Source: a virus. From it: a stretch of DNA of 64,000 bases. Both the position numbers and the translations under genes were made by a program. How positions within the stretch are numbered: the first letter of the stretch is position 1; the number at the start of each line of letters is the position of its first letter. The stretch spans positions 51,641-115,640 of IMG/VR virus record IMGVR_UViG_3300045988_183117, one strand, 5' to 3'. Shown here one piece after another: positions 2,795 through 50,738 of this stretch. The notes below the pieces were generated by a model. That model had not been told where the DNA came from, ran no database searches, and was given only the letters and a program-made list of their open reading frames with translations.

Positions 2795-2822
2795 ATTATA
2801 TGCAATTCGCACAGATGCACAA
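2795..2822 (-). promoter_or_regulatory. Family A promoter A1 (TTGTGC-ATCTGTGCGAATTGCA-TATAAT)
   Basis: Read on the minus strand: a 16-nt spacer with the conserved core, about 110 nt upstream of the 2155..2686 start. Confidence 0.55.
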
Positions 2823-2920
2823 TGTTTTTCTTTCTGGTAATTTATGGTAAGTGTTGTGCAAAAAAATAAGACCACCACCCTTTTTGGGGCAGTGGTCTTG
2901 ATTGCTATTGCTTTTGAAAA

Positions 2921-3370
2921 TCAATCCAGTAGTTTTCCGGCCTTGTATGAGTGGTACAAATAGCTCGGATTACAATAGTAAGTTGCAGTATTAAAATCTG
3001 AGATGTCATCGCTAATGAACGAGGAAAATACATCAATTACATCCTGGACACTAGGAGTGCTAGTACAGTCAAAGATGATGCGCTGGTACACTTTTCCGAT
3101 ATCTGTATAAGATGGAACCTTGTAATGGCAGTTAGACACCGTATCATACGTTCCTTCCGGCACAGGAAAAAGCTCACAAATTTCATCGGCAGATTGCTCA
3201 AAGCTCTGGCAGTGAAACACATCCGCTGAGTCGAGAATTGCCTTGACTCCGTTTGTGCCAAGAGCAGAAACCACATCCTTGCGATGATTCCTCGTAACGC
3301 GGCCGATATATTCAATCAGGCTGCAGGTATAAAAGACATCGTTTTTGCTGTAGGTTGCAGTTTCAGTCAT
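2921..3370 (-). CDS. Hypothetical protein (possible DUF3791-like partner of the adjacent DUF3990)
   Basis: 149-aa ORF. Its start overlaps the upstream gene's stop by 4 nt (translational coupling). Domain assignment is weak. Confidence 0.5.
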   Translation of the reverse strand: MTETATYSKNDVFYTCSLIEYIGRVTRNHRKDVVSALGTNGVKAILDSADVFHCQSFEQSADEICELFPVPEGTYDTVSNCHYKVPSYTDIGKVYQRIIFDCTSTPSVQDVIDVFSSFISDDISDFNTATYYCNPSYLYHSYKAGKLLD

Positions 3371-3819
3371 ACTTCAATCGCCTCCTTAAAAGAGAGACAT
3401 TTCAAAGCGACTTCCGTGTGAAAGCTGATTTGATGCGTGGGATGCTTGAATTTTGCCAACGCCCAAAAAGCTTCACGGCTAATATCACCGCTTAGAAAGT
3501 CGTTGACGTAGTTCCAAATGGTGTCATCCGCCATGGGTCCTTCCACAATATCATAGTCATGATGTTTGCCCGAGCGACATATAGCAATAAAATCAAGCCA
3601 CTCATCACTCATTTCGGGGAATTTCTTAATATTTAGCATAGGAGATTCTGTATATTCAAACACGTTGACAATACCACGAGACCTGCCTTTTTTTGACCAG
3701 CGAGCGGCTTGTTCGTAGTTGCTAGTGCAATAGAATCCCCATGAAAAATCTTTGGCGTACCTTGTTTTTCTGACCTCAGGGTTGCGGACTATTACATCGC
3801 TGCCATGATACAGAACCAT
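3367..3819 (-). CDS. DUF3990 family protein
   Basis: Motifs MVLYHGS, DFSWGFYCT, QAARW, YDIVEGPMADD and HQISFHT. The start is moved to MVLYHGS, with RBS AAGGAAG 8 nt upstream. Confidence 0.7.
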   Translation of the reverse strand: MVLYHGSDVIVRNPEVRKTRYAKDFSWGFYCTSNYEQAARWSKKGRSRGIVNVFEYTESPMLNIKKFPEMSDEWLDFIAICRSGKHHDYDIVEGPMADDTIWNYVNDFLSGDISREAFWALAKFKHPTHQISFHTEVALKCLSFKEAIEV

Positions 3820-3940
3820 TATTATCACTTCCTTGCATATATTATACTTGTTTTTATGTGTTAACACAATCATTTCGTATGATTTTGGTTCCTACGCTTT
3901 CTGCTGAAAGAATCCGAATCAAAGTTTCGTTCTAGGAGTA

Positions 3941-5374: not shown

Positions 5375-5444
5375 TTGTGGTCTCCTTTTCTAAAAAAGCC
5401 ACCGTTTCTGTAGGAAAACAGTGGCAATATATAAGTGATATGGT

Positions 5445-5918: not shown

Positions 5919-5953
5919 AGTAATATGCTCCCTTTCTGTGTGTGAGATGTTTC

Positions 5954-6877: not shown

Positions 6878-8038
6878 TTATGGTTTGCAAATCCCACACG
6901 CCGAATACCCTTCCTGGATGAGCTCATCGCGGGGCCCCATATAGTCGATTCGATTCTTTTGACTCATCGATTCGACTGCAGAGCAATCGGGTTTGTGAAA
7001 CTTCATAGTGCTCGTGTTCAGAACGTATGTCTCGTCTATGACAAGTGAAGCTTTGTCCTGTTCATCCTTGGAATCTGCAGCACTACCGGCTTCAATCCGA
7101 TTTTCATCATGATATTCACCGGAAGTGAAACTTACCTCTTTGCCATCCGAGGTGCAGTAAATATCACCCAGCAGGTCTGTGCGATAAACCTCGACACCTT
7201 TGTTTTGCAGCTTGTCGAGTGTTTCCTGATGTGGATGACCGTAACTGTTCCCTGTGCCACAAGAAATCACAGCATATGTTGGATTTACCGCATCCAGAAA
7301 AGTCTCTGAGGTAGATGTACTTGAGCCATGATGCCCTACTTTCAGAACTGTTGACTGAATGTCTTGTCCCGATGCAAGTATCACGTTTTCCGCTTCCTGT
7401 TCTGCATCTCCGGTAAAGAGGAACGAGGTGTCTCCATAGACAATACGCAAAACAATCGAAGTATTGTTCGTGTCATCGGGAACAGAATTAACACCAACTA
7501 TCGTGAATTCTGCTTTCCCTAGAGTATAAGTGTCTCCCACATCCGGTATCGTGATGCCTCCGCCTTTCTGTTCCGCGTGGCTTGCAAAGTCCCGAAATGC
7601 TTTGCTGTCGTATTCTGTCACAGGGCATAGAGTCATGTCCGCAGTGACGGCCTCAAAGGCACCGGACAAGCCGCCGATGTGGTCTTCGTGCGCGTGAGTC
7701 CCAACGACATAATCCAGGTGCCCATCGGTTTCACGCTGCATAACAGAATATAAGAGGTTAGAATCATCGACATTACCGCCATCAATAAGCATTGAGTGGC
7801 CGTCGCAGGTGATAAGGGCGGAATCCGCCTGCCCTACGTCTATAAAGTGAATGGTAAAGCTGCCGTCCACCGAACCGCCAGCCGTCTGTTCACTGCTTGC
7901 AGTGCTTTCTGAGACGACCCCGGTGCTGGATGGACTTTCCGATATTATCGGATTCTGACCGCAGCCGGTGAAGCTGAGTGCAAGGAGCGTAGCGATGATT
8001 GCCGCCGTGCTCCGGAATAGATTGTTTTTGAGTTTCAT
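6878..8038 (-). CDS. Lipoprotein with an MBL-fold metallo-hydrolase domain (ComEC C-terminal-like) and a Cys-rich C-terminal tail
   Basis: Signal peptide plus lipobox LALSFTGCG. HAHEDHIGG is the HxHxDH motif. The C-terminus is CSAVESM...YSACGICKP. Confidence 0.75.
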   Translation of the reverse strand: MKLKNNLFRSTAAIIATLLALSFTGCGQNPIISESPSSTGVVSESTASSEQTAGGSVDGSFTIHFIDVGQADSALITCDGHSMLIDGGNVDDSNLLYSVMQRETDGHLDYVVGTHAHEDHIGGLSGAFEAVTADMTLCPVTEYDSKAFRDFASHAEQKGGGITIPDVGDTYTLGKAEFTIVGVNSVPDDTNNTSIVLRIVYGDTSFLFTGDAEQEAENVILASGQDIQSTVLKVGHHGSSTSTSETFLDAVNPTYAVISCGTGNSYGHPHQETLDKLQNKGVEVYRTDLLGDIYCTSDGKEVSFTSGEYHDENRIEAGSAADSKDEQDKASLVIDETYVLNTSTMKFHKPDCSAVESMSQKNRIDYMGPRDELIQEGYSACGICKP

Positions 8039-12095: not shown

Positions 12096-14816
12096 TCAGC
12101 CAAAGCTGAGCTGCTCCGAGTCAGTTGAAAAGAAAGCCGCCTTTTTCTTTGCCTGCTCTTTTGCGCTCTTACTTATCGGTTTCTTCGTGCCGTCCAGATG
12201 ATGCTTGCTCTTGTACGAATAGCCTTTCCAGGCAGCCTGATAGGAAAGGTAGCCATATCCGTTAGCATTGTCCAGGACCTTATCAGTTGCGGCCTCGACC
12301 ACAACATAACGGGGCTGGTTGGGCTTTGAGAGTTCATCGCTTTTCACGACACGATAGCTCTTCTTCTCATCTGCGCCGTACTTGGAAAACGGTAATGCGG
12401 ATTCCTTTTTGGGCTTGGATTTTGCCTTGGCGCTTTCGATGCTTCCCTCAACGGAATCCACCAGTTCAGAGTCAAAGAACGCCTCATCAAGAGGTACGTT
12501 GGGGCTGTTCTGCTTCTTTGCTTCTTCGATTTTCTGATACATGGCATCTTCGGCGCGGCGCATCTTCCAAACCTTGATGAGGGCTTTTTCCGGGAACGTG
12601 ATGGTCAGTCCCTTTTCCGCCAGCATCTTTCGGACAGCAGGCGTAGCGAAAGACTTGTATTTTGCATACGGTCCTTCTTTGTGCTGCTCGATTTCATGGC
12701 TTACCTGAGTCATATATTCCTCAAACGCCTTGTTCTGGTCGAGCCAGAACTCGACTTCGGAATAAGGAGAATCATGGTCCACGGTTTTTTGAAGTTCGCA
12801 ACTCTTCGCATAAGCAAGACAAGCGTCTTTCACATCGGCAAAACCAAGCCCAAAATTATCGTTCAGAGTGTTTCGGCGTGCTCCATCCATCACGAAATAA
12901 CGGCTTCCTTGCTTGATGATGGCGATACCATCTCCGGAAGTGATAGTGGTGGACTCTTCCGCATATCCGTCGTCAGTCCAGCGGTCGATAATCGATGCCG
13001 TATCCTGTACAAAGCCTTTTCGGCAGGTGTAATAATCCGCGCCGTTGTAAGCTCGTTTCGTGATGCACTTGGTAATTGCGTCAATCAGAGCGTCTATATC
13101 CTTGATTTTTACGCTGTACATCAGGTTACTTTTGACGTTCCAGACAACGCCATACGGCAACCCCAATGCCATCATGGAACACGCACACTGCAGAAAATGC
13201 TTATGTGCCAGGCTGCTGATGAACTTGATGCAGTAGACGGTATTATTCTTTACGACATCCGCAAGGCCCGAGGTATAAATTACTTTATGGTCCTTAGTAT
13301 GAATGTCGATATCGCCACGTGCCTGAACATATTCATCGGGAGTGAACACGGTTCCAAGCCGCATGCTGAGCGACATTTTGGCTTTTGCGTTCACAAAAGG
13401 AGGCTTGACCTGTTTTACATACCTGCACTGATTCGTTTCGAGTGCTGTGAGCAGTAGAACCTTATCCTCGACCGTTGCACCCTTCTTGATTTTCAAATAC
13501 TGCATGTCTTTATGCAGGTCCATGTAATACGCAAGTGCGTCATCTATATCGTAGGAATTAAAGAATCCTGCCTGCATGTAGATGCTGATGCAGGGAGACA
13601 AATCAATCATTGCATCTGCCGTCTGGATATCAATGGTCGTGGTATCATTACGTTCAATCGGTGTGACTTCCAACAGCTTATAGCAGGCATCTACATCCTC
13701 GATGAATTTATGGTCAAACATCTCAGAAAATGCGAACGGATGCGGAAATCCGCGAAGAGTTTCAGTTGGGGTCATCAGAGATTTATCGCTCAACGGATGG
13801 TCTGAGTTTACGAAAATGATTCGCTGCTTTCCTCGGCTTGCTGCGACACAAAACAGATTCCGAAGAATCTCATATCGTGCCATCGGTTTGCTTGTGCGAG
13901 ACGACCAGTATTCTTCCGTGAAATCAAACACAACGCAGATAGGCCGCTCCATACCTTTGCTGCCGTCAAAAGTCGTGAAGATACCAACATCCGAGGAGGG
14001 TGCTACTGCCTTATTCCCATCATTGTCTGCGATACTTGCATAGACATGATGCTTGTCATAGAGGTTCCCCGGTCGATTCTCCAAGTCGTTGAGCACCTTC
14101 GTCATGGCTCCAATTCGAGCACCCAGGCAAAGGACATTTTTGGGGTTCTGCTTATTCAGGAACTCTGTCACTTCATCGACCGACATCTGTTCCACGATAC
14201 AGGAGCTATTTACGCCGTTGATGGTCTTGCCCCAGATATTGCCGAGTCGTTCTGCCAAGTCATGAGAAATACGGAAGCATTTCGTGAAAACCACCTGTTC
14301 ATGGCGGCCGAGAAAATCCTGCATGAACTCCCAGACATCCAGCGCTGTATCATCGTAGATTTTCTGCTTCATATCGCCCACTGCAACGATTTGAAGGCTC
14401 GGATTCTGAGAACGGATATATTTGAGTAGTTCCGCAATCTCGTCATTGATATCCTGATACTCGTCAATGATAAGAGTATCAATCGGCGGAATCGGAATTT
14501 TCTTTTCCAATACCATAGCGAGCTGTTCACCCTGCCCGCAATTTCGGATTCCCTTTTTGTTCAGCAGCAGGCTTGCAAATCCGTGATAGTTCTGGACCAA
14601 GACATTATGATTTTTGATTTTGTCTTTGGCGTCAAGTTTGAGTAATCGGTTATAGGTCAAGTACAGGATACGCCGTTCTGGAGGGTACGCATCACAGAGC
14701 ACGTTGATGGTCGATGTCTTTCCGCTGCCAATGCAGGCGTCACACAATACGTTTTTTCCCGACAATGCCAAATGTACGAATTCCTGTTGTTCGCTTGACA
14801 AGTCGTTCAGCGTCAT
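12096..14816 (-). CDS. UvrD/Rep-like SF1 DNA helicase with a long C-terminal extension
   Basis: Walker A is ACIGSGKTST and motif II is LIIDEYQDIND. Start moved to MTLNDL with RBS AGGAG 7 nt upstream. Promoter A4 lies upstream. Confidence 0.8.
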   Translation of the reverse strand: MTLNDLSSEQQEFVHLALSGKNVLCDACIGSGKTSTINVLCDAYPPERRILYLTYNRLLKLDAKDKIKNHNVLVQNYHGFASLLLNKKGIRNCGQGEQLAMVLEKKIPIPPIDTLIIDEYQDINDEIAELLKYIRSQNPSLQIVAVGDMKQKIYDDTALDVWEFMQDFLGRHEQVVFTKCFRISHDLAERLGNIWGKTINGVNSSCIVEQMSVDEVTEFLNKQNPKNVLCLGARIGAMTKVLNDLENRPGNLYDKHHVYASIADNDGNKAVAPSSDVGIFTTFDGSKGMERPICVVFDFTEEYWSSRTSKPMARYEILRNLFCVAASRGKQRIIFVNSDHPLSDKSLMTPTETLRGFPHPFAFSEMFDHKFIEDVDACYKLLEVTPIERNDTTTIDIQTADAMIDLSPCISIYMQAGFFNSYDIDDALAYYMDLHKDMQYLKIKKGATVEDKVLLLTALETNQCRYVKQVKPPFVNAKAKMSLSMRLGTVFTPDEYVQARGDIDIHTKDHKVIYTSGLADVVKNNTVYCIKFISSLAHKHFLQCACSMMALGLPYGVVWNVKSNLMYSVKIKDIDALIDAITKCITKRAYNGADYYTCRKGFVQDTASIIDRWTDDGYAEESTTITSGDGIAIIKQGSRYFVMDGARRNTLNDNFGLGFADVKDACLAYAKSCELQKTVDHDSPYSEVEFWLDQNKAFEEYMTQVSHEIEQHKEGPYAKYKSFATPAVRKMLAEKGLTITFPEKALIKVWKMRRAEDAMYQKIEEAKKQNSPNVPLDEAFFDSELVDSVEGSIESAKAKSKPKKESALPFSKYGADEKKSYRVVKSDELSKPNQPRYVVVEAATDKVLDNANGYGYLSYQAAWKGYSYKSKHHLDGTKKPISKSAKEQAKKKAAFFSTDSEQLSFG

Positions 14817-14993: not shown

Positions 14994-15470
14994 TTACTGC
15001 TGGAGTTCCCAAATTTCAATATTCAGATTCCAGGCTTTTGCTGCATCGCTGATGATTTCCAGAACCGTGTCCCAGTCGCCTCCGGCAAGGCCGCAGCCTA
15101 AACCATATGGCAGCCGGACGATTGCGCTCTGATTCTTTTGAGTACAGTCTCGGAAAAATGAGAACAGTGCAGTCGCTAGTGCAGCGTAATTTGTTTGTCT
15201 TTCGCCCCGGCCATAGCCATTTTGGCCGAACAGGTTCACGATGTACAGCTTCGGCTCTACCAGAACTTCTTGATAAGTCCCAAGCTTGTTGCCATCACTG
15301 CCATAGCAAAGTCCCAGATAGTGCCGATATACTACCGGCCATTGGCTGCGAATTTGCATCGCGAGTCCGGCTCCCATCACGCCTTTGCAATTTACTTGCT
15401 GGCAAATGTAAGTTGGCTTACTCGCAGAAAGTCGTGAAAAAATATTGCCGTCGATAAATTTAATGCCCAT
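14994..15470 (-). CDS. Macro-domain protein (ADP-ribose binding / hydrolase)
   Basis: QQVNCKGVMGAGLAMQIR matches the macro N..AAN..GGGV signature. IVRLPYGLGCGLAGGDW matches the second glycine-rich loop. Start moved to MGIKF immediately after the stop of the upstream gene. Confidence 0.7.
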   Translation of the reverse strand: MGIKFIDGNIFSRLSASKPTYICQQVNCKGVMGAGLAMQIRSQWPVVYRHYLGLCYGSDGNKLGTYQEVLVEPKLYIVNLFGQNGYGRGERQTNYAALATALFSFFRDCTQKNQSAIVRLPYGLGCGLAGGDWDTVLEIISDAAKAWNLNIEIWELQQ

Positions 15471-15471
15471 C

Positions 15472-15879
15472 TTACTTACCACCCTTTCCAAATTTCGAAG
15501 CATTCCCTGGATAGATGGTGTAGTCCGTGCCATAATCAACGTTATTGTCTCGGTATACGAGCTCTACATTCGACATGCTGGTATAGAAAACCTTGTCTCG
15601 GTAACGGCTATCGCCGATTTCAAATTTGATGTTTTGCCCGTTGTCCACGATTTCGTAGCTTACGAGAGCGGATACGGTCCAAATGTTGTCGTAGCGAAAA
15701 TGAATGTAATTGTATTCCGGTTTCATCTCAGCACTTTCCGGTGTAGACAATATCTGACCCGGAATATCTTCGAGTTCAGACATTGTGGTACTTGTCACAG
15801 TGCTGATTGCGTCCTCACAGCCAGCCAAAGGTAGAGCCAGGCAGCACAGCACCAAAGCAGTCCCAATAAATTTTTTCAT
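15472..15879 (-). CDS. Small lipoprotein
   Basis: MKKFIGTALVLCCLALPLAGCED carries a lipobox. Promoter A5 lies upstream. Confidence 0.55.
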   Translation of the reverse strand: MKKFIGTALVLCCLALPLAGCEDAISTVTSTTMSELEDIPGQILSTPESAEMKPEYNYIHFRYDNIWTVSALVSYEIVDNGQNIKFEIGDSRYRDKVFYTSMSNVELVYRDNNVDYGTDYTIYPGNASKFGKGGK

Positions 15880-15990: not shown

Positions 15991-16036
15991 ATCTGTCGTA
16001 CAAATCTGATTGTGCGAGCCTCGCACATCAGGTCAA
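15991..16036 (-). promoter_or_regulatory. Family A promoter A6 with downstream TTGTACGACAGAT element, in tandem 60 nt upstream of A5
   Basis: TTGACC-TGATGTGCGAGGCTCG-CACAAT, then TTTGTACGACAGATA. Confidence 0.45.
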
Positions 16037-16161: not shown

Positions 16162-16482
16162 TTAGCCCTCAACAACAAAGGTGTAGCTGTCTTCTTTCAT
16201 CGCGACAAGGCCCTTGAACGTCTGGCACTCAGCTTCGTCCAGGAATGCCTTGATGGTCAGGCTAGTATCCTCATTATCCAGCCATTCGGGACGCATTCGG
16301 ACAACGAGGTCGTGTAGCTCTCCGAGAACATAGGCCATCAGGTCATGGTCGCCCAGAGCCTCGCCAATTGCTTCATCATCGCATTCGACGGGAAAGCTGA
16401 TGGATGCGGCAAGGCCGTCAAGTTCATCATCGTCTTTGGGGCGGATTACAGTGGCTTCGAGTTTCAAAATACTGGTGTTCAT
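16162..16482 (-). CDS. Hypothetical acidic 106-aa protein
   Basis: ORF track entry. Promoter A7 lies about 60 nt upstream. Confidence 0.5.
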   Translation of the reverse strand: MNTSILKLEATVIRPKDDDELDGLAASISFPVECDDEAIGEALGDHDLMAYVLGELHDLVVRMRPEWLDNEDTSLTIKAFLDEAECQTFKGLVAMKEDSYTFVVEG

Positions 16483-18774: not shown

Positions 18775-18875
18775 CAAAAGAAAACGAGAACACCGTCGGC
18801 AACGGAGTCCTCGCAAAAGATAGTTCTTTTTGATTACGGTTTTAATTATATGGAACCCGCAATGCATTGCAAGCA

Positions 18876-23167: not shown

Positions 23168-23195
23168 ATTATATGGATATTGCACTTTTTTGCAA
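23168..23195 (-). promoter_or_regulatory. Family B promoter B1 (TTGCAA-AAAAGTGCAATATCCA-TATAAT)
   Basis: 16-nt spacer with GTGCAAT in the same position as the GTGCGAAT of family A. Upstream of 22532..23140. Confidence 0.5.
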
Positions 23196-25572: not shown

Positions 25573-25600
25573 ATTCACTTTTAATTGTCTGCGATTCGCA
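25573..25600 (-). promoter_or_regulatory. Family A promoter A9
   Basis: TTGCGA-AACTGTGCGAATCGCA-GACAAT. Confidence 0.5.
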
Positions 25601-25644
25601 CAGTTTCGCAACATGATATTGTCTGTGAATATCAGTTATCGGAG

Positions 25645-26283
25645 TCATAGTCCCTTGACAAAATTCGGGTCGTAGTGGGACAGGACTTCCTCGTTCAAGC
25701 TGTATTCGCAGTTGATAGTCGTTGCGTCATCCACATACATGCCTCGGTTTGCGTAGTATATCCCATCGATATAAATGGCGAACATGACGGACGGCATCAG
25801 TGCCTTTTCATTCACTGCGTAAATCAGGTATTCATCCAGATTATCCTTGACCACCGCGCTCTTATTGATTTGGGCGATTTGCTGTTCGCAAAGGAATACA
25901 GGGCAGCATACTCCTTCTTTTCCAAAACCAATTTTGTAGCTCTGGTATTCCTCGCCATACAGCTGCATGGCGATAGAATTGTATCCTTGGAGAAATCCGG
26001 TTTTTGTATGGATGACGGAAATCTCGCCTACCGTGCAGTTGTTCTCACGGATAGCAAAAGGGTGTCTCAGAATATCTTTCGTGTTGATGCCGCGCATGTA
26101 CGCCCTTGCGTCAGCAGCTGGCATGTATTGCAGCAGGAACTTGGAATCATTCAGCCGGATGCCATAACCTTGCCGCAGCACTTTCGGAATATAGTGTGCC
26201 TGCCCGATAACGGCCTTGCCTTTCACGATATCGAAGGTGAACTCATATCCTTTCGATTTGGTTTGCTTAACAATCCATTGCAA
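25645..26283 (-). CDS. Hypothetical 212-aa protein (TTG start)
   Basis: AAAGGAGG lies 8 nt upstream of the TTG at 26283. Confidence 0.5.
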   Translation of the reverse strand: MQWIVKQTKSKGYEFTFDIVKGKAVIGQAHYIPKVLRQGYGIRLNDSKFLLQYMPAADARAYMRGINTKDILRHPFAIRENNCTVGEISVIHTKTGFLQGYNSIAMQLYGEEYQSYKIGFGKEGVCCPVFLCEQQIAQINKSAVVKDNLDEYLIYAVNEKALMPSVMFAIYIDGIYYANRGMYVDDATTINCEYSLNEEVLSHYDPNFVKGL

Positions 26284-26711
26284 AACTCCATCGCCTCCTT
26301 TTGCCTTCTCACTCGCTGGATAACCTTGTAAATACCAGGAACCGAGAGCTGATACTTTTCGGATAGTTTCTGCACCGGCACGCCACTCTCGTATTCTCGA
26401 AAGATATTCTCGTTGCGCGGTCTTTGTCTAATTTTGATGCGCTCGTTTTTGCGGTTTTCAGTCAGACCCGCATCATTGGCAACCATGCCGCAATATCCTT
26501 CTGTCACGTTGAATTTCGCAATCATTTCCTTGAGAGGGACACTGTTCTTGTATGCCGCAATTATTTCAGCTTTTCTGGCATCCTCAACCTGTGCCAGCTG
26601 AATTCTGGCTTTCTGCTTTGCGTCGTCTAACGCTCGATAGCATGTACGGACGCTCAACCTGTATTTTGTGGCAAGCTCCTCAATGGAATAGCCGTTGCCG
26701 TAGTCTTTCAT
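26223..26711 (-). CDS. Multi-HTH protein, paralog family member 4
   Basis: Track ORF 26223..26822. Its first codons (MPICANCRQ) are a translation of promoter motif A10, so the start is moved to MKDYGNGYSIEELATKY. Confidence 0.5.
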   Translation of the reverse strand: MKDYGNGYSIEELATKYRLSVRTCYRALDDAKQKARIQLAQVEDARKAEIIAAYKNSVPLKEMIAKFNVTEGYCGMVANDAGLTENRKNERIKIRQRPRNENIFREYESGVPVQKLSEKYQLSVPGIYKVIQRVRRQKEAMEFCNGLLSKPNRKDMSSPSIS

Positions 26712-26793
26712 GATATTGCGATTTCGCTCAATCAGCTTTTTGCTTGCAAACCTTGAGATGGTACTCAGCTCCTTTGCTTTATGCTTTACTTCT

Positions 26794-26822
26794 GATTGTC
26801 TGCAATTCGCACAAATGGGCAA
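26794..26822 (-). promoter_or_regulatory. Family A promoter A10
   Basis: TTGCCC-ATTTGTGCGAATTGCA-GACAAT, upstream of multi-HTH gene 4. Confidence 0.5.
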
Positions 26823-26873: not shown

Positions 26874-29033
26874 TTAGAGGTTAAAGATGCCCAGCCAGCG
26901 CCGAAACTTGATGCCGAACAATTCCTGTGCCTGCTCGTAGTTCATGATAAGCTGGTTGCCGCCAGAAATCTCTGCTTCGAGGGAGTTCGGCAGCTCATCT
27001 GCAATGTATTTCAGTTCGTACCACGGTCCATCCGGCGGATAGGAGTAAATGAGCCTGTTCTGCTTCTTATCAACCCGGAACTTGCTCGGGTCAGCCTGCC
27101 ATGCCAGTTCGATTTTCTCAATTGCAGCACGACCAATGCTCTCATCACCCATATAGTCGTTATAGTACAGGATACGCACATAGTCCGGCAAATCGATTCC
27201 GCATGCCTCGAAGATATCTGCAATGACACTAGACGAAGCGTGGAAGATATCCGGGAAGTATTCCTTGCCATTCGCATTTTCACGCATTTCCGTCGTCATC
27301 TCATCGATGCAAACAAGCATTCGGCGGACATATTCGCCATAGAACGCGGTTGTCAGCTCCGACATACTCTCATTCACACGCTTTGAGTTCTTGGCACCGC
27401 GCTCGTTGTCGATTTTAGCACCAATTCGACAGATGATAGCACGTTTCGAGAGGTCTTTTGTCAGCGAGGTAATTTTATTCGATGTGATAGATACAGCAGG
27501 ATAGTTCACGAGCCTGTCCGAGATACCCCATTCATCGTTCTTGATTACCCGTTCTGAATGGTTCTGAAACTGGGTCTTGGCGAGGTCGTCGATGTTCAGC
27601 GGCAGTCCCTCACAAACTCGTTTGAGGCCGTCGATTCTTGTGGCTGTGAAATCCTCCGTCGTGTTCATCTTAACGGTCTCACCGCACATGAGTTTGACAA
27701 GAAATTTTATAAAGGTCGTCTTGCCGCCGTTTGAGTCGCCGTATATAACGCCGTACATCGGGAACAGCTTCGTATCGTAGTTGTTCCTCGATGCGAAATA
27801 CCGCAGATACGCCATGAACGGAGTAGCCAGATACCAGGTCATGTACTTGAAGTAGTCCTTCTTGGCCTGTTCGACATCGCCGTAAAAGTAGTCCATGCCT
27901 GAGAAGAACTTCTGGATGCTCTTGATGTTCTTTGCCACCTCGCTGAGATTCGGATTGAGGTCGATATTCTCGTCGTTGAAGGTCATGGTCCCGGCATCAT
28001 AGTCGATATGTAATTTCGGGAGCTGCTTAACTGCCTCAGCTGCCACACGCCGCACCTCGGTATATCGTTTCCCGAAAACGCGCATCGGTTCCGCTGCCAC
28101 TACAATACGATTCGCCTGTACCGGCATCTTAGGCATGATTGGCTTGACGAGTTCCTGCATTTTCTTGACATCGGCAACTATCTCGTATTCGACCTCATCC
28201 TCAGGCTGTGCCTGTTCCAGAAAGACAAGCTTCTGCTTTTCAATAGACTGAAAGACGGGCACTTCTTTGATGTTCTCTTTCAGATAATCTTCCTGGTTCA
28301 TGGTGTTCACGACTGCCTTATAGGAGACATTGTCGGAGCAGGTCTCCTTGAAGGTCTCGAACAGAACCTTGTAATGCGAAAATGCCGCCTCGTCATCGAA
28401 GCAGACGATATTCTCTCGCTGAATGCCGCAAAACGCCGATGCCGACATATTCGCACTGCCGGTGATGACTCGGACACGCTTATGGTCAGCGCTCTCCAAG
28501 ATAAAGATTTTCTCGTGCGATTTCGTGTCCCGCGATACATACAGCTGCAAGGACCCGTCATAGAGCCTGTTCGCGAGGTTCCCTGCCGACTTAGCGAGCC
28601 GCTGCACGCTGTCGATTTGCACCGACATGATGGCAGCGATGTCGGTGGCGATGATTTTCTCGCATCCGAACACGACTTCCGCATACGAGAACTTGTTGAT
28701 GACCTTATTTACGAACTCGATTCCGGACGAAAAAGTGATAGCATAGAGTCTGTCGAACCCGTCAAACAGCTCCTCCCAATTCGTTTCGACCGTATCAGCA
28801 TATATCGCCTTCACAACACTCAGCGCCTGCGTGGAGATGCTCGCCTTTGCCTTCGTGGTTTTGTTCGCCACTGGTTTGAAGGGCTTATCCGTCTGCCCAT
28901 CACTGTCCCCCGTATCCTCGCCGGGGTCTAAGAGTTCTTCCGGGCCTTCCTCGGTGTATTCGGGGCTTTCCGACACCATCATGTCCATGAGCGACATCTG
29001 ATTTTCCAAGTCGTTTGCTTTTCTCCTTGCCAT
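26874..29033 (-). CDS. Fusion of a PLD-like (HKD) nuclease domain with an SF3 helicase / primase C-terminal P-loop domain
   Basis: SHEKIFILESADHKRVRVITGSANMS resembles HxK...GSxN. YGDSNGGKTTF is a P4/D5-type Walker A. A 330-nt leader lies downstream of promoter A11. Confidence 0.7.
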   Translation of the reverse strand: MARRKANDLENQMSLMDMMVSESPEYTEEGPEELLDPGEDTGDSDGQTDKPFKPVANKTTKAKASISTQALSVVKAIYADTVETNWEELFDGFDRLYAITFSSGIEFVNKVINKFSYAEVVFGCEKIIATDIAAIMSVQIDSVQRLAKSAGNLANRLYDGSLQLYVSRDTKSHEKIFILESADHKRVRVITGSANMSASAFCGIQRENIVCFDDEAAFSHYKVLFETFKETCSDNVSYKAVVNTMNQEDYLKENIKEVPVFQSIEKQKLVFLEQAQPEDEVEYEIVADVKKMQELVKPIMPKMPVQANRIVVAAEPMRVFGKRYTEVRRVAAEAVKQLPKLHIDYDAGTMTFNDENIDLNPNLSEVAKNIKSIQKFFSGMDYFYGDVEQAKKDYFKYMTWYLATPFMAYLRYFASRNNYDTKLFPMYGVIYGDSNGGKTTFIKFLVKLMCGETVKMNTTEDFTATRIDGLKRVCEGLPLNIDDLAKTQFQNHSERVIKNDEWGISDRLVNYPAVSITSNKITSLTKDLSKRAIICRIGAKIDNERGAKNSKRVNESMSELTTAFYGEYVRRMLVCIDEMTTEMRENANGKEYFPDIFHASSSVIADIFEACGIDLPDYVRILYYNDYMGDESIGRAAIEKIELAWQADPSKFRVDKKQNRLIYSYPPDGPWYELKYIADELPNSLEAEISGGNQLIMNYEQAQELFGIKFRRWLGIFNL

Positions 29034-37548: not shown

Positions 37549-38897
37549 TGAAAGGGGGCTTCGCAGTGAAAATCACTTCCAGCTATGCTGTGGAAATCAA
37601 AAAGCAGAAAATGTTCGACAATACTATAAAGATTTATCGCGAAGCCGTTTCTTTCTTGATTGATTGTTTTAACAAAGAATGGGATTCTATTCAAAAAGTA
37701 GAGGGTGCCAAATCTCGAAAGAGTTTTGCCGAGAAGTTAATTCATACTACAAAATACAGCACTGCTAAATATGATTTCGATGCCAAGTTTTATAAGTTCC
37801 CCAGTTACCTGCGCAGAGCAGCTATTCAAGCAGCACTCGGCTCTGTAAGCAGCTACTACAGTAGCCATAAGAACTGGGAAGCTAACGGCAAATTTGGCAA
37901 TGAGCCAAAACTCCAATGCGATAGATTCTGTTTCCCAACTTTCTATAAAACCGTTATGTTTTCTGAAAGCAACGAGCCCAACCAGTGCTACTTAAAGCTG
38001 TACAGTAAAAACGATTGGGTTTGGGTTCCTATCGCAATGCGTGCCACCGATGTCAAATACATCACGAAATACTGGTCACATTGCGAAAAGAGTGCTCCCT
38101 CCCTCGAAAAGAAGTACGGGAAGTATTTCCTACGCTTTGCCTTCGAGGAAGAGGTAAAACTCTCCGATACTGAAATTCAGGATAGGCGTATCTGCGCTGT
38201 AGACCTTGGTCTCAATACTGACGCTGTGTGTAGCATCATGACTGCCGATGGAACTGTCCTTGCAAGAAAATTTATCAATTTTGCAAGTGAAAAAGACCAT
38301 CTGTATCATGTGCTCAACCGTATTAAGCGTAAGCAAAGAGAACATGGGCCTAAGAGTGCTGCTGCTATGTGGCGTTACGTCAAAGCCTTGAATGATGATG
38401 TAGCGAAAAAAGTTGCCGCCGCCATTACTGAATTCGCAGTGCTTTATTCTGTAGATGTGATTGTTTTTGAACATTTGTCATTTACAGGCAAAAAGCACGG
38501 CGGCAGTAAAGCACAAAAGCTGACAATGTGGAAACGTAATTCCATACAGGATTATGTGACACAGAAGGCACACCGCTGCGGTATCCGGATTTCGCGTATC
38601 TGCGCTTGGGGCACAAGCAAACTCGCCTTTGATGGCAGTGGTGCTCTTGAGCGTGATGAAACCAATCGTGCCCTTGCAACGTTTGCAAGCGGCAAACAAT
38701 ACAACTGTGACCTAAGTGCGAGCTACAATATTGGCGCTCGCTACTTTGTCAGAGAGTTGCTAAAACCCTTGCCAGCGATGGTAAGGTCTCAGCTTTCGGC
38801 TAATGTTCCGGATGTTGAGCGTAGAATCCAAGTTACACTTGCCACGCTTAAAGTTCTGTATCCTGAGCTTAAAAAACTCAGTACACAGGCAGCGTAA
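37548..38897 (+). CDS. tnpB: IS605 OrfB/TnpB RNA-guided RuvC-like endonuclease
   Basis: RuvC-I is CAVDLGLNTD, RuvC-II is VFEHLSF, and CAWGTSKLAFDGSG ... CDLSASYNIGARYF gives the Zn-finger/RuvC-III region. Confidence 0.85.
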   Translation: MKGGFAVKITSSYAVEIKKQKMFDNTIKIYREAVSFLIDCFNKEWDSIQKVEGAKSRKSFAEKLIHTTKYSTAKYDFDAKFYKFPSYLRRAAIQAALGSVSSYYSSHKNWEANGKFGNEPKLQCDRFCFPTFYKTVMFSESNEPNQCYLKLYSKNDWVWVPIAMRATDVKYITKYWSHCEKSAPSLEKKYGKYFLRFAFEEEVKLSDTEIQDRRICAVDLGLNTDAVCSIMTADGTVLARKFINFASEKDHLYHVLNRIKRKQREHGPKSAAAMWRYVKALNDDVAKKVAAAITEFAVLYSVDVIVFEHLSFTGKKHGGSKAQKLTMWKRNSIQDYVTQKAHRCGIRISRICAWGTSKLAFDGSGALERDETNRALATFASGKQYNCDLSASYNIGARYFVRELLKPLPAMVRSQLSANVPDVERRIQVTLATLKVLYPELKKLSTQAA

Positions 38898-42353: not shown

Positions 42354-43079
42354 TTATGCAACTTTGACCGTCTCAAATTCCCAGGTAACGGTATCCACGA
42401 TACAAAAAGCCTGTGACCCGTATGGGGTTCCGTCACGATAGGTCGAGAAAGTATCACAGGAAAGAACTCCGTCTTCCAAGTGTACTTCTTTGACTGGCGT
42501 ATGCCCCACCACTTGCAGATATTTGCCGCCGCGATACAAACGTTTTGCGTTTTGATTCGGAGACAGCTGCGGGCGATACCAAATGGGAGAGTCCGCTGCC
42601 CACATTGTCTCACAGCCCATCTGGTTGATAGCTTTGATAACCGCGAGAACATTTTTGCGGTTCTGTGGTGCTACCCGGAGTTGAACAAAGAGATTTGCAA
42701 GGCCGCCGTGCATGAAAAGTGTTTTGTCAATTTTGTGGATATATGCAAGCTGACTTTTCTTTGGCAAGGTATTTGTCAACTTTTTAATTTCTTGACACAC
42801 CAGCCCTCTTTTTTCCGGATGGTATCCGGTTTCCGGTTTTCCCCAGATGTAGCTCAGGTCATGGTTCCCGTAGCACCAGAGAGTATCTGGATGTTCCTTG
42901 GCAAACGCGATTGCGGTTTCATAGGTCTCCAGATACTGCGCATCATCATGTACCCCGAAATCATCTGCCAAGTCCATAAGGCAGACGGCCTTGTCCGCAA
43001 TGCCCTTCTTCACGATGGCATCTGCCTGCGCAAACATCCAGGGTTTCAAATGGCAATCTGGAATGACTAAGACCTTCAT
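42354..43079 (-). CDS. Calcineurin-like metallophosphoesterase (lambda-PPase-like Ser/Thr phosphatase)
   Basis: Motifs PDCH, GNHD, GGLANL and GHTP. Promoter A14 lies upstream. Confidence 0.75.
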   Translation of the reverse strand: MKVLVIPDCHLKPWMFAQADAIVKKGIADKAVCLMDLADDFGVHDDAQYLETYETAIAFAKEHPDTLWCYGNHDLSYIWGKPETGYHPEKRGLVCQEIKKLTNTLPKKSQLAYIHKIDKTLFMHGGLANLFVQLRVAPQNRKNVLAVIKAINQMGCETMWAADSPIWYRPQLSPNQNAKRLYRGGKYLQVVGHTPVKEVHLEDGVLSCDTFSTYRDGTPYGSQAFCIVDTVTWEFETVKVA

Positions 43080-43477: not shown

Positions 43478-44509
43478 ATGGATATCAGCAAAAACATCAC
43501 CTATTATCGTTCTCAAAAAGGCGTTACTCAGCAATGGTTGGCTGACGCAATCGATGTCAGTAAAATGAGCATTTCCCATTTTGAGAATGGTAAACGCCGT
43601 CCGGACATTGCAACCATCAAGAAAATTTGTAAAGCGCTGGATGTTACTCTTGGTAAATTCATGGCGTACAATGAGGGAGTTACTGTTTTTAATGGCTCTT
43701 TCCGTAAGTCGGACAATCTAGCCGCATCTCAGCAGGATGCTATCGTTGCTCAGATTCGCTACGCTGCACAGCGCTATTACGATGCCTGTTTGTGCGCCAA
43801 TACCGTTTGTGACGCCAACACTCTACCCAAAGAGAAAATTCCTGTTTTTGAGGACGCAAACCGGTCCGCTTCCTATATGCGCAGCGTTCTTGGCCTGGCT
43901 CCGACCGGGCCCGTTGGCAATCTTACCAGCGTACTCGAAAACAAGGGCATCTATGTCGTTCTGGTCGAACAGCGTGACATGGGTGTATCTACCAAGAACT
44001 TCTCGGGGTATAATGGACTCTCCAATAAGGGCTTCCCTATCATCGCTGTAAATGAAAGTATGGTCTATGGCCGTCAGCGCTTTACCCTTGCACATGAATT
44101 CGCACATTTGCTCTTTACCAATGCTACTGAGCGGCAGATTGACGATATTGCAGGACGGTTTTTATTGCCCAGCGAAGATTTGAAACGAGAAGTTGGTAGC
44201 AAACGACCGTTTATCAGTTTTAAGGAAATCGTGTATGTCCAGAATGAATATGGAGTTTCTGAGCAGTGCATTGTTTTTCGTGCAAGGCAGGAGGAAATCA
44301 TTAGTCAGCGCACTTATGATATTATCCTTAATGCCAAGGAATACCCACAAGATACTACCGATATCAGAGAACATCCTATTCGGTTGGAGCAAATTGTCTG
44401 TCGCGCTTATACTGATAATGAAATTAGCGTATCGAAGGCTGCTGAGCTGTTAAATGTCGATACCGTTAAAGCTGCAGCTGTTTGTGGGGCAGAAGGAGAA
44501 AGCGCATGA
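43478..44509 (+). CDS. XRE-family HTH fused to an ImmA/IrrE-type metallopeptidase domain
   Basis: QQWLADAIDVSKMSISHFENG is the HTH. HEFAHLLF is HExxH. RBS AGGAGG. Promoter TTTACA-17-TATAAT. Confidence 0.8.
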   Translation: MDISKNITYYRSQKGVTQQWLADAIDVSKMSISHFENGKRRPDIATIKKICKALDVTLGKFMAYNEGVTVFNGSFRKSDNLAASQQDAIVAQIRYAAQRYYDACLCANTVCDANTLPKEKIPVFEDANRSASYMRSVLGLAPTGPVGNLTSVLENKGIYVVLVEQRDMGVSTKNFSGYNGLSNKGFPIIAVNESMVYGRQRFTLAHEFAHLLFTNATERQIDDIAGRFLLPSEDLKREVGSKRPFISFKEIVYVQNEYGVSEQCIVFRARQEEIISQRTYDIILNAKEYPQDTTDIREHPIRLEQIVCRAYTDNEISVSKAAELLNVDTVKAAAVCGAEGESA

Positions 44510-47408: not shown

Positions 47409-47463
47409 GGAAACGCTATCTATGTAAAAAGACGACTGAGTTCGTCAGAGGTCTTGTAATCTA

Positions 47464-48804: not shown

Positions 48805-48927
48805 AATTATCCTCTTTTCTCCTCGTAACATTCGAGGCTTGCAATAAAAAGCAGCCACCATCCCCCCTTGCAGGAAGATGATAGCTGCTACATTCATAAG
48901 CCAACTTCGTATCAGATGGCTTTTTTA

Positions 48928-50097
48928 TTATTCTTCAGTAGCTTTCTGACCGTGATGAAGGGCGCCCCGGACAAACTGGTTCCAGCGAGCATGGTACAAA
49001 ACGAACCCGTCTTCAAACTCCACCGTGATGTTGTTGACACCATGATAAGCGGTGCAGGTGGCTTTGCTGCCATCCTTCATCGTCATCGTAGTGCCGACAG
49101 ATTTCGGAGAACCGTACTCGTCCTTGCGAGCTGCGTTGATGGCACGCTCCCGCAGTCTGCAATTGGGGCAGCAAGTAACACCGGACGCAATAGCCCGCGT
49201 CATGTTGTGGATGCTTGTCACAAACTCTTGTTTGCAATCGGGGCACACAAAAATGGCGCGTCTGGACGAACGGGCAGGAATTTCGCTGGGGGCGTAATCA
49301 TTCTTGCTGCTCCACATAGCAGCAGCTTTTGGATACATGGTCGCCAAATCGTTGACGCCGGAAATAGCCTTGCGACCTGCACAAACAGGGCAACCGGTAT
49401 TGTCATGCAACAAAGAATTGACGACGTTGCAAACGGGAGCCTTAAACTCCTGTTTGCAGTCGGGGCAGACAAACCATGCCATTTTGTTGTTGCCTGCAGA
49501 TATCTTACTGGGAGAGCAAGCGTTTTTGTCGCTCCACATGTTGGCTGCCGCAGGGCACTTTGTAGCTAAGTCATTGATTCCGGAAACCACTTTCAAACCA
49601 CGACAAACGGGACAACCGGTGCGATAACGCATCAAAGAGTTGACAACATTGCAAATGGAAGACTCAAACTCTTGTCCGCAATCAGGGCATACAAAGATGG
49701 CCTTTTTGTGGCTGCCTGCAGCTACTTCGCTGGGAGAGCAAGCGTTCTTGTCACTCCACATGGTAGCAGCCATAGGGCATTTGGTAGCCAAATCGTTGAT
49801 GCCGGAAACAATCTTTTTACCTGCACAAACAGGGCAACCAGTGTTACCGTTCATTACCGAACGAACAACACTAAAGATTTTGCTTTCAAATTCCTGCCCA
49901 CAGTCTGGGCAAACAAATGTGAACTTTCTTCTGCTTCCCGCAGCCACTTTACTGGGAGAGAAGGTGTTCTTGTCACTCCACATGGTAGCAGCCATAGGGC
50001 ATTTTGTAGCCACGTCATTGATGCCGGGGATAACGGGGATAACTTCCTTGGAATTGGTAGTGTTGGTGTTGATGTTGGTATTCATAGCGGTTTTCAT
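48928..50097 (-). CDS. Protein with 4 tandem zinc-ribbon repeats (paralog of 47464..48804)
   Basis: Four near-identical repeats AAMWSDKN..SPS.VAAGS.K..FVCPDCGQEF....VV.S...N.GCPVC.G.K. Start moved to MKTAMNT with RBS GAGGAGAAAGAG. Confidence 0.65.
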   Translation of the reverse strand: MKTAMNTNINTNTTNSKEVIPVIPGINDVATKCPMAATMWSDKNTFSPSKVAAGSRRKFTFVCPDCGQEFESKIFSVVRSVMNGNTGCPVCAGKKIVSGINDLATKCPMAATMWSDKNACSPSEVAAGSHKKAIFVCPDCGQEFESSICNVVNSLMRYRTGCPVCRGLKVVSGINDLATKCPAAANMWSDKNACSPSKISAGNNKMAWFVCPDCKQEFKAPVCNVVNSLLHDNTGCPVCAGRKAISGVNDLATMYPKAAAMWSSKNDYAPSEIPARSSRRAIFVCPDCKQEFVTSIHNMTRAIASGVTCCPNCRLRERAINAARKDEYGSPKSVGTTMTMKDGSKATCTAYHGVNNITVEFEDGFVLYHARWNQFVRGALHHGQKATEE

Positions 50098-50230
50098 AAC
50101 AGACTCTCTTTCTCCTCGTATTTTCGAGGCTTGTAGAATAAAAATAGCAGCTATCATTTTTACGATAACTGCTTCATATATGAGCATACGGCGTGCAGCC
50201 GAATGTCATGCTGGAATTGGATAGAGTGGC

Positions 50231-50581
50231 TTACTGCTCATCGAGCAGGATTCCACCGTGCTTGGCGATGATGGCATCGACAACAGTGAGCGGCACATAG
50301 CCGTACACTCCGTCATCACCATATTCGTCGAGTAATGGCTCGGACGGAGACGGGAACCCGACTTCTACGCTCACGTAGCTCCCCTCGTCGTCCTTCTGGC
50401 AGTAGTGCTCATCGGATGCCTGAATGGACATCTTGAAGCCATCTGCGCAGATTGCTTCGGGGCGGTTCTCGCGCATCGCCATCATAGCAGCAAATATGTT
50501 GCCGCTGCTCTTGGCAATCTTTTCCTTCTTCAGAAGGTCGGTAACGCGGATGAATTCGGCGGTGTTCATAATGGTGTTCAT
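50231..50581 (-). CDS. Hypothetical protein, paralog of 5445..5918
   Basis: The track's N-terminal extension overlaps promoter A15. Start moved to MNTIMNTAEF with RBS GAGGAAAG. Confidence 0.55.
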   Translation of the reverse strand: MNTIMNTAEFIRVTDLLKKEKIAKSSGNIFAAMMAMRENRPEAICADGFKMSIQASDEHYCQKDDEGSYVSVEVGFPSPSEPLLDEYGDDGVYGYVPLTVVDAIIAKHGGILLDEQ

Positions 50582-50690
50582 AGCTTTCCTCGACTTTCTC
50601 CGCATTACGCGGTCTTGCAACAAAAAAGACAGGTCACCCGATTGGTGCCTGTCTGAATTTGTCAGATTATGAATGGTTGATGTCGGTTTA

Positions 50691-50738
50691 TTATCTGTCG
50701 TACAACACTTATTGTATGCCGTTCGCAAGTTTCGTCAA
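50691..50738 (-). promoter_or_regulatory. Family A promoter A15 with downstream TTGTACGACAGATAA element
   Basis: TTGACG-AAACTTGCGAACGGCA-TACAAT, then 8 nt, then GTTGTACGACAGATAA. Confidence 0.5.

Follow-up and report, generated by a model that had tools for sequence, protein, structure and literature searches.

What reads a promoter whose spacer is conserved along with its two hexamers? The question is raised by a 64,000-nucleotide (nt) stretch of DNA (the window: positions 51,641 to 115,640 of the IMG/VR virus record IMGVR_UViG_3300045988_183117), in which one promoter-like motif stands in front of many separate transcription units. An earlier note, made from the letters alone, had listed fifteen copies and proposed that the shared spacer is an extra recognition element for a dedicated regulator or sigma-like factor. 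It named a set of proteins with several helix-turn-helix (HTH) units as candidates. The motif, its register, its conservation and its context, the accompanying terminators, the architecture of the tandem-HTH proteins, and their co-occurrence with the motif are all observed directly. Judged by their sequence, the sites together define one predicted regulon in the cargo region of a Hodor-like megaplasmid. We tentatively read them as housekeeping-sigma promoters with an embedded operator for the plasmid's own tandem-HTH proteins, an arrangement that would give a burst of expression followed by shut-off; we give this reading somewhat less than an even chance.

The repeated motif and its leaders

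All fifteen of the sites first listed are present in the sequence. Most of the coordinates stand; one site, placed at 25573-25600, was off by 11 nt (the true 28-mer is 25584-25611), and two end points were adjusted (16010-16036 to 16009-16036, and 26794-26822 to 26795-26822). Fifteen is not the full set, since a sixteenth site at 50815-50842 on the plus strand, divergent from the one at 50711-50738, had been overlooked. The promoter unit spans 28 bp (TTGnnn-nnnn-GTGCGAAy-nnnn-TAcAAT). Fifteen of the 16 strong sites are on the minus strand and the divergent one is on the plus strand, and all of them fall within 2.8-50.8 kb of the window. Below, a promoter is named by the first coordinate of its site.

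When no more than one mismatch is allowed, the core pattern ATTGTRNNNNRTTCGCA matches the window 15 times, where shuffled sequence would lead one to expect 0.44; the count stayed below 15 in each of 100 shuffles. A scan with a position weight matrix (PWM), which the earlier note had suggested, was run on the window and its relatives with a matrix trained on the window's motif sites. It gave a clean separation, and the motif is kept in the relatives. Scores in the window are sharply bimodal: the 16 sites score 25-38 bits, two degenerate copies on the minus strand score 16.5 bits (18845-18872) and 12.5 bits (23168-23195), and the remainder do not exceed 9.4 bits.

The spacer is 16 nt long in every copy, as had been claimed. 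The near-invariance ascribed to spacer positions 1-12 is limited to positions 5-12 (GTGCGAAy); positions 1-4 are variable. The copies found in the window were pooled with those from about 200 related loci, and 65 non-redundant promoters were left once near-duplicates had been removed. In this larger set, spacer positions 13-16 follow a weaker consensus, yGCA. In full, the consensus has (c/g)TTGc (-35 to -31) and an A at -28; the conserved block, yGTGCGAAyyGCA, runs without a break from -25 to -13 and leads into TAcAAT (-12 to -7). Further downstream come an A-rich stretch and, close to where transcription is expected to start, the signal T(G/A)nA. Positions -24 to -18 carry 0.9-2.0 bits each, equal to both hexamers, and are conserved at 95-100%, while -30 to -26 and both flanks are unconstrained. 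The spacer block is thus conserved, in this set and across two deeply diverged plasmid lineages, beyond what drift would leave, as first proposed. The 7-mer GTGCGAA is almost confined to motif promoters, which contain 12 of its 14 copies in the window, so that the block does not occur on its own, and a scan with a 9-mer sub-matrix found no secondary copies of the block at fixed offsets and no positional enrichment.

Each site looks like a promoter of the sigma-70/sigma-A type, a prediction in keeping with the earlier note. TTG is kept in 13 of the 16 sites and the -10 box is TAyAAT or GACAAT, at the 16-nt spacing; the TG that marks an extended -10 box is missing from all motif sites of the window. 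A generic promoter scanner picks up half of them (8/16), each at 9-10 of 12. The sites lie upstream of ribosome-binding sites and start codons, several right behind a strong terminator. The distance from the -10 box to the start codon is 23-130 nt, once 342 nt (P29375), with a GGAG-like ribosome-binding site present; some motif promoters precede a second motif promoter instead of a start codon. The motif is regulatory and not coding, as had been argued: the open reading frame (ORF) at 26223-26822, whose translation begins LPICANCRQ, reads through the motif and is an artefact of the ORF finder.

The statement that the motif drives nearly all minus-strand units holds within 2.8-50.8 kb and fails outside this range. 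We found no motif sites at 51-64 kb of the window, in the type IV secretion region, or in the 10 kb past the tandem-HTH operon. Other parts of the replicon have promoter-like sites of the canonical form (TTGaca-17-(TG)TATAAT), and the block is therefore not merely the promoter style of the host. A literature search on the motif string returned irrelevant matches only.

Strong intrinsic terminators are located just upstream of several motif promoters (2899-2868 before P2795, 14988-14954 before P14900, 50785-50758 before P50711, as well as 15964-15929 and 22522-22493), and the units are therefore insulated from one another. Terminators also occur within operons, e.g., at 22145-22121 and 48889-48850. 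In addition, a leader that ends in an intrinsic terminator follows eight of the window's 15 minus-strand promoters and 28 of the 65 non-redundant ones; beyond this terminator lies the gene's ribosome-binding site or another motif promoter (P15903 after P16009, and P32904 after P33071). This leader of 60-135 nt, with its terminator, forms a conserved module at about half of the promoters and adds a second, unexplained level of control. The earlier note had overlooked these leader terminators with their conserved boxes, as it had the conjugative-megaplasmid nature of the replicon and the anti-defence-like cargo.

The leaders of 17 of the 65 promoters begin with (U)GUACGAuAGAUAnC, which we call Box 1. 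A terminator, placed at +81 to +109, is present in every one of these 17, compared to 11 of the other 48 (p = 1e-8). In an alignment of the Box-1 leaders, a variable hairpin region separates Box 1 from a second box (AUUCACAaUU) ahead of the terminator, and the terminator hairpin shows compensatory changes at 7 of 10 base pairs. The leaders had no match in Rfam. A riboswitch-like antiterminator formed from the conserved boxes is unlikely, because the terminator arms differ among leaders while the boxes are constant. In the window, this module, which resembles a leader or small RNA (sRNA), is found behind P6832, P8148, P16009, P50711, and P33071, and it is present in 17 non-redundant relatives; at two loci the module stands on its own, with another motif promoter after it. 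Box 1 (TGTACGA) and the -35 region (TTGCnnA) resemble the spacer block, an impression only, with no enrichment in the 9-mer scan. The terminators flanking P22446 on the minus strand (22522-22493 and 22412-22385) have mutually complementary arms, GCTCATGCGGGA and TCCCGCATGAG, and an upstream read-through RNA across this promoter could fold into an alternative structure.

The replicon and the candidate readers

At its right end the window codes for the C-terminal portion of a VirB4/TraC-like ATPase. Contigs in public collections that have identical genes extend into a type IV secretion region of the Gram-positive type, with genes for a VirD4-like coupling protein and, upstream of it, an M23 peptidase and a protein of 2095 amino acids (aa). 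The coupling protein and VirB4 genes are just upstream of the promoter array, which sits between the secretion genes and the tandem-HTH operon. Because a type IV coupling protein and VirB4 are present, the replicon is a conjugative element. A phage origin was considered and rejected: searches of GenBank phages with megablast and tblastn gave nothing relevant, and the PHROG matches are generic.

No plasmid in PLSDB matched the window at the nucleotide level. The nearest coupling proteins on known plasmids are 30% identical and belong to large plasmids of Clostridium botulinum/sporogenes. One scan each of species-representative genomes gave no match for a plasmid protein or for the 28-mer. In an assembly collection, the 317-aa tandem-HTH protein was found in 835 index blocks, on human-gut contigs of up to 254 kb, and IMG/VR holds dozens of near-identical contigs of 35-389 kb that are labelled viral. 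The IMG/VR contigs numbered 3300045988_18xxxx (our loci L001-L282) include dozens from this conjugative plasmid family filed as viral genomes, in agreement with a remark in the Hodor preprint that these plasmids had gone unnoticed in virus collections.

The Hodor conjugative megaplasmids (bioRxiv 10.64898/2026.02.21.707213; PMC12934698) come from the human gut, are 211-389 kb long, and are contained in virus catalogues. Their guanine-plus-cytosine (GC) content is 47.1% in group G1 and 44.6% in group G2, VirD4 is about 40% identical between the groups, and TnpB is frequent; promoters, regulators, and anti-defence genes are not mentioned (PMC12934698). Rep_3, ParA/ParB, sortases, and giant surface proteins, which also characterise Hodor plasmids, would be encoded outside the window. 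The present contigs share with them the gut origin, a length of 200-390 kb, the filing as viruses, the frequent TnpB, and the lack of close relatives in plasmid databases. One group has a GC content of about 47% and the other of 43-45%, again with VirD4 about 40% identical between groups. The replicon under study has the profile of G1: a gut replicon of more than 200 kb with a GC content of about 47% that carries VirD4 and VirB4 and is catalogued as viral. The window thus probably belongs to the Hodor megaplasmids, a match made by description and not by sequence. The data fit a human-gut Bacillota host and a conjugative megaplasmid of the Gram-positive type that is very common in gut metagenomes.

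Two sets of relatives inform on the conservation of the motif. Relatives with an 83% identical coupling protein (locus L074) carry the motif in different flanks. In a second group of contigs, with a 40% identical coupling protein and a lower GC content (about 43%), the motif begins about 25 kb beyond the coupling-protein gene (loci L213-L215, 24-39 bits). Examples from this 40% lineage are TTGCGCAGCCGTGCGAATTGCATACAAT, at 38.8 bits, and another copy with a Box-1-like leader. At position 15224 of L213 (38.8 bits), promoter, leader, and unit are orthologous to the P29375 cassette of the window, and cassettes have therefore been exchanged between the lineages.

The multi-HTH paralogs named in the earlier note are reasonable candidates for the reader: they are HTH arrays, three of them form one operon behind the motif, and a collinear orthologue is present in the diverged lineage. 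The tandem-HTH operon (689..2682, minus strand) lies behind P2795 and encodes H175 (2682..2155) and H172 (2165..1647), with three HTH units each, and H317 (1642..689), with six; all three are on the minus strand. A fourth paralogue of 162 aa with three HTH units (26223..26711, minus strand) lies behind P26795. P2795 is the best-conserved copy of the motif among the relatives, being identical in 62 of the loci retrieved.

The HTH units match Pfam HTH_23, HTH_28, Mor, and Sigma70_r4, and the PHROG late transcriptional activator HTH; the tandem-HTH proteins match the CD3324 family and Cbp1 in NCBIfam. An AlphaFold model of H175 consists of three tri-helical units joined by flexible linkers of low confidence (mean predicted local distance difference test score 76, predicted template modelling score 0.35). 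Its top PDB match by both sequence and fold is the CRISPR-repeat-binding protein 2LVS (Foldseek E-value 0.03), followed by mariner/SETMAR paired-like domains and the Pax paired domain. All of these are tandem-HTH readers that bind long asymmetric DNA sites as monomers. Cbp1/Cbp2 and the paired-like domains of Tc1/mariner, the best matches of H175 and H317, likewise combine tandem homeodomain-like HTH units with basic linkers and bind as a monomer to an asymmetric site of 20-30 bp; however, they are archaeal or eukaryotic and have other roles, so that the likeness is limited to the architecture and the HTH fold.

The homologues of H175 returned by a word-indexed protein search were all at least 75% identical and belong to the same plasmid family. 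The 40% lineage has a collinear three-HTH orthologue with 35% identity (L212, 13786-14259). This gene lies between the secretion genes and the first motif promoters of that lineage (about 15.2-18.3 kb in L213/L214).

Readings of the spacer block

In the reading we prefer, the fixed-register block at -25 to -13 would be the operator of a plasmid-encoded factor, with H175, H172, H317, and the paralogue at 26 kb as the best candidates. A monomeric array of three HTH units would read a contiguous asymmetric site of about 29 bp that takes in the -35 box, the spacer, and the -10 box (-35 to -7). The bound tandem-HTH protein would exclude RNA polymerase and thereby repress. Because the candidate regulator operon has the same promoter as its targets in the lineage of the window, the factor would repress its own synthesis (negative autoregulation). 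On entry into a cell free of the factor the regulon would fire, and it would be shut off as the factor accumulates; a burst followed by shut-off is the behaviour expected of establishment and anti-defence genes. Repression is preferred over activation because a self-driven activator would leave a newly arrived plasmid silent. This reading is supported by the placement of P2795 at the head of the tandem-HTH operon and of P26795 at the head of a paralogue, and by the sister lineage, which keeps the motif and the three-HTH orthologue together.

A precedent exists in plasmid p576, for which experiments have demonstrated that several strong sigma-A establishment promoters carry Reg operators and that the repressor gene is part of the regulon (PMC8708921). 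As in p576 (EGeRS2/Reg576) and in EGeRS1 of pLS20, a regulatory sequence is repeated before separate variable operons of a Gram-positive conjugative plasmid, the gene of the regulator (here a candidate) belongs to the set it would control, a further conserved element follows the transcription start in some copies, the gene set is mosaic in relatives, and elements are present that block read-through from upstream (PMC8708921). Repetition of this type is seen here in 16 copies within 48 kb adjoining type IV secretion genes. In contrast, the Reg operators lie outside the core promoter as paired direct repeats of a heptamer, and a ribbon-helix-helix protein binds them (PMC8708921), whereas the present block is single, asymmetric, and inside the spacer, and the candidate readers are tandem-HTH proteins. 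There are about 16 promoters per plasmid instead of 4-5, leader terminators follow the promoter, and sequence similarity to the p576 elements is absent. The p576 regulon is known from experiment, while the present one is deduced from its sequence.

The operators of global repressors in Gram-negative plasmids and of Aca proteins are usually palindromes over the -35 or -10 box that are bound by dimers, and the host phylum and the protein families differ from those considered here. What our motif would share with the IncP KorA/KorB/TrbA, IncW R388 ArdK, and Aca anti-CRISPR promoter systems is the use of one HTH protein, encoded by the plasmid or phage, with a short operator in many promoters, together with negative feedback and a burst of expression on entry (see also PMC13551039). 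The array is best taken as a plasmid regulon with a private promoter-operator module, the operator being predicted. Its unusual features are the in-spacer block in rigid register, the roughly 16 copies per plasmid, the pairing with tandem-HTH proteins, and the conserved leader-terminator module.

Several points weigh against in-spacer repression by the tandem-HTH proteins. We infer the activity of the promoters, the identity of the binding protein, the sign of the regulation, and its timing after transfer, as well as the placement of the array in the leading region, neither the origin of transfer (oriT) nor a relaxase having been located. The HTH units are closest to Mor/C-type activators and to sigma region 4, and would be equally apt for an activator or a specificity factor. 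The -35 box is conserved only as TTG plus C, the spacer has 16 nt and not 17, and the TG extension is lacking, so that the promoters may be weak on their own, which would be a better fit to activation. The orthologue is only 35% identical between the lineages, yet the motif is unchanged, which is unusual for a cognate pair of protein and site unless cassette exchange keeps the specificity fixed; alternatively, the reader may be a host factor. Finally, the stretch retrieved upstream of the orthologue in the 40% lineage (L212) contains no motif promoter, and autoregulation would therefore not be universal.

The same block could serve positive control, with a tandem-HTH activator or sigma-like factor docking on it, and possibly also on the TTGC, to recruit or re-target the host polymerase. 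This possibility, which we consider unlikely, draws on the best family matches of every HTH unit (Mor, "late transcriptional activator" PHROGs, and sigma-70 region 4), on the suboptimal core (TTGc.., the 16-nt spacer, no TG, and a G at -12 in several copies), and on the rigid register of the three elements, which suggests that they are read as one unit. However, an activator encoded behind its own targets (P2795 and P26795) would create a positive-feedback switch that is silent when the newcomer plasmid needs its genes. Moreover, the targets of Mor and C are dyads at about -33 to -56, each occupied by a dimer, and not asymmetric sites in the spacer, and sigma region 2 was not detected in the window ORFs scanned. 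The sigma-like factor suggested in the earlier note stands as one option among several. A promoter of the Mor/C activator type, which would have a defective -35 box and a dyad-symmetric activator site centred near -43, was rejected: nothing is conserved upstream of -35, and the block is asymmetric and at -25 to -13.

More speculatively, the tandem three-HTH proteins, with their sigma-region-4-like units, might constitute a new promoter-specificity factor. A single chain would recognise 29 bp as one site, from the -35-like box through the spacer to the DNA next to the -10 box, and would then either define a private promoter class or board polymerase to carry it past the leader terminators, giving about 45 anti-defence and establishment genes a programme of their own across both lineages. 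We regard this as rather improbable.

A host factor, be it an alternative sigma factor or a global regulator, might also read the block, with the promoters of the plasmid cargo tuned to it; our assessment is that this is a distinctly doubtful explanation. A reader in the host would easily explain why the motif is the same in both lineages, although identity is 40% between their coupling proteins and 35% between their three-HTH orthologues. The sequence GCGAAC/T within the block also resembles a single half-site of the LexA box of Bacillota, as well as the -35 box of promoters for sigma factors of the extracytoplasmic-function (ECF) type. The full LexA box is absent, however, as the second half-site would read TACAA, and the nearest CGAC/CGTC-like sequence lies about 20 nt away, against the 16-17 nt of ECF promoters. 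In addition, the motif keeps to a single plasmid region, and canonical promoters are used in the others. To our knowledge, the block fits no consensus of LexA, Spo0A, CcpA, the sporulation sigma factors, or other sigma factors of Bacillota. An ECF-sigma promoter was also rejected as such, since the nearest CGAC is about 20 nt from GCGAAC and occurs only in the Box-1 class.

The leader terminators bring to mind antitermination loaded at the promoter. At lambda PR', the Q-binding element is also located between the -35 and -10 boxes. By analogy, a factor bound to the spacer would board the polymerase and let it pass the leader and intra-operon terminators. With PR'-qut-tR' the present promoters share the factor element in the spacer, a conserved initial transcript, and a terminator about 60-135 nt downstream. 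The leader terminators counted above (8/15 and 28/65), the two within operons (22145-22121 and 48889-48850), and the start of Box 1, which opens with TACGAT at about +2 to +7, the position of a sigma-dependent pause, all agree with such a mechanism. However, the Box 1 base that matches the essential final T of the pause element is variable (T/C/A/G), the invariant part being G..A.rGATA; there are many promoters, more than half of which lack a leader terminator; neither a Q-family protein nor another antiterminator domain was found in the window ORFs scanned against Pfam and PHROG; and the need for a plasmid-made antiterminator would delay the genes required on entry. We therefore hold antitermination of the Q type to be very unlikely.

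Least probable of all is that the block has no dedicated reader and the 28-mer is a promoter cassette spread by duplication and recombination, its similarity being due to common descent, and maybe serves as homology for cassette shuffling: the units are modular (terminator, promoter, gene or genes) and mosaic among relatives, the promoter-plus-leader module is clearly homologous in many units, and the L213 cassette at 15224 attests to exchange between lineages, but promoters with wholly unrelated leaders and genes share the block, and the randomised -30 to -26 and flanks next to the preserved -24 to -18 indicate selection and not recency. A single-stranded promoter of the Frpo type, whose -35 and -10 boxes arise by intrastrand pairing within a long imperfect hairpin, was rejected, since no inverted copy of the motif is near any site and the one copy on the opposite strand, at a distance of about 100 bp, is a divergent promoter in its own right.

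Few mobile elements of human-gut Bacillota are as widespread as these megaplasmids, whose regulation has yet to be described. With the 28-bp signature, sequence alone is enough to outline a regulon in which dozens of mostly unfamiliar genes stand beside recognisable anti-defence genes; the signature can serve directly in the search for further anti-defence candidates and in predicting the genes to be expressed earliest upon transfer. An in-spacer operator with a tandem-HTH protein would be a compact and unusual design for coordinate control, and it could offer a reusable orthogonal promoter-regulator pair for gut Firmicutes.

Units, cargo, and neighbouring genes

The motif promoters head about 15-16 units with roughly 45 genes. 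By domain and family matches, the cargo products include AcrVA2-like, Apyc1-like metallo-beta-lactamase-fold, NADAR, and DUF3990/ART-like proteins; a Y-family (ImpB-like) polymerase; UvrD-like and DEAD/ResIII helicases; a PLD nuclease-fold protein; SPFH/flotillin; phosphoesterases; and zinc-ribbon proteins. Most of the remaining cargo genes are without a family. On these matches the cargo looks anti-defence-like, and its content, uniform orientation, and mosaic variation are like those of the establishment and anti-defence regions of conjugative plasmids (PMC8708921; see also PMC11541004).

The units on the minus strand are described in order of increasing coordinates. P2795 (2795..2822, 36.8 bits), which heads the tandem-HTH operon, has a weak terminator-like hairpin in its leader (2752-2703). 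P6832 (6832..6859, 31.0 bits) has a Box-1 leader with a terminator at 6758-6725, and its operon extends from about 6694 to 2921 and includes the DUF3990 gene. P8148 (8148..8175, 26.7 bits) carries the variant spacer block ATACGAAC; its Box-1-like leader ends in a terminator at 8096-8061 and is followed by the gene for the Apyc1-like metallo-beta-lactamase-fold protein (8038..6878). At P14900 (14900..14927, 33.4 bits), a leader terminator (14878-14839) precedes the gene for a 906-aa UvrD-like helicase (14816..12096), the first of a long operon reaching to about 8.2 kb.

Two promoters follow one another closely near 16 kb. P16009 (16009..16036, 25.4 bits) has a Box-1 leader of about 80 nt with a terminator at 15964-15928, and the T-tract of this terminator doubles as the -35 box of P15903 (15903..15930, 29.0 bits). 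The latter precedes genes for a 135-aa lipoprotein-like protein (15879..15472) and a 181-aa phosphatase-like protein. P16532 (16532..16559, 34.7 bits) precedes a 106-aa gene (16482..16162). The higher-scoring degenerate copy (18845-18872), with the block TTGCGGGT, aims into the 3' end of a convergent 628-aa gene on the plus strand (16785-18671) and may be a decayed or an antisense promoter.

P22446 (22446..22473, 36.4 bits) has a leader terminator at 22412-22385, followed by a 65-aa membrane protein gene, the terminator at 22145-22121, and genes for a 731-aa DEAD/ResIII helicase, a 184-aa protein, and a NADAR protein. P25584 (25584..25611, 36.8 bits) is followed by a 199-aa gene, the 295-aa AcrVA2-like gene, whose label comes from a Pfam tag on an orthologous gene, and further genes. 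P26795 (26795..26822, 38.0 bits) drives, by prediction, the fourth tandem-HTH gene together with a 212-aa gene. P29375 (29375..29402, 35.6 bits) precedes the gene for a 719-aa PLD/NgoFVII-like nuclease-fold protein (29033..26874), 342 nt downstream.

P33071 (33071..33098, 33.6 bits) is predicted to yield a leader or sRNA-like transcript of roughly 135 nt, with its terminator (32972-32936) directly before P32904 (32904..32931, 34.6 bits). The P32904 operon consists of an SPFH/flotillin gene (32810..31161), a ribozyme, and small genes. The ribozyme, a self-cleaving RNA of the hepatitis delta virus (HDV)-like type at 31063-31134 on the minus strand, matches the Rfam family RF02682 (HDV-F-prausnitzii) at 48.1 bits against a gathering score of 44, and is located between the SPFH/flotillin gene and the gene that follows it in the operon. 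It could process the P32904 mRNA, and it hints at a Faecalibacterium-like host.

P43116 (43116..43143, 26.9 bits) is without a leader terminator, and its Metallophos gene (43079..42354) starts 37 nt downstream. P50711 (50711..50738, TTGACG-16-TACAAT, spacer block TTGCGAAC, 30.2 bits) has a Box-1 leader with a terminator at 50654-50626, followed by a 116-aa gene (50581..50231) and then by DUF4379 and ImpB-like genes. The divergent plus-strand promoter at 50815..50842 (TTGCCG-16-TACAAT, spacer block ATGCGAGC, 26.9 bits) precedes a 220-aa gene at about 50915-51577 on the plus strand, a gene call taken from the related locus L129. Just beyond the array, a TnpB/OrfB-like gene (578 aa; 51719-53455, minus strand) is the second of its kind in the window. 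The first is part of an IS200/IS605 element (37129-38897, plus strand) with a Y1 transposase and a TnpB-like gene, which lies within a plus-strand island at 33.3-38.9 kb that is free of motif promoters.

An HD-domain gene on the plus strand (33350-34803) is apparently split: the frames 33350-33949 and 33778-34803 overlap, and a T-run is located at about 33722-33731, so that the split could be a frameshift or an assembly error. It has a canonical extended -10 promoter at about 33275-33315. The 33778-34803 frame was considered as a MOBH-like relaxase, an assignment rejected because it had no match to the TIGR03760 hidden Markov model. Divergent from P43116, and with its own canonical promoter, is a plus-strand gene (43478-44509) that encodes a fusion of an XRE-type HTH (HTH_3) with an M78 (ImmA/IrrE-like) peptidase, possibly an additional switch or regulator of the ImmR/ImmA type.

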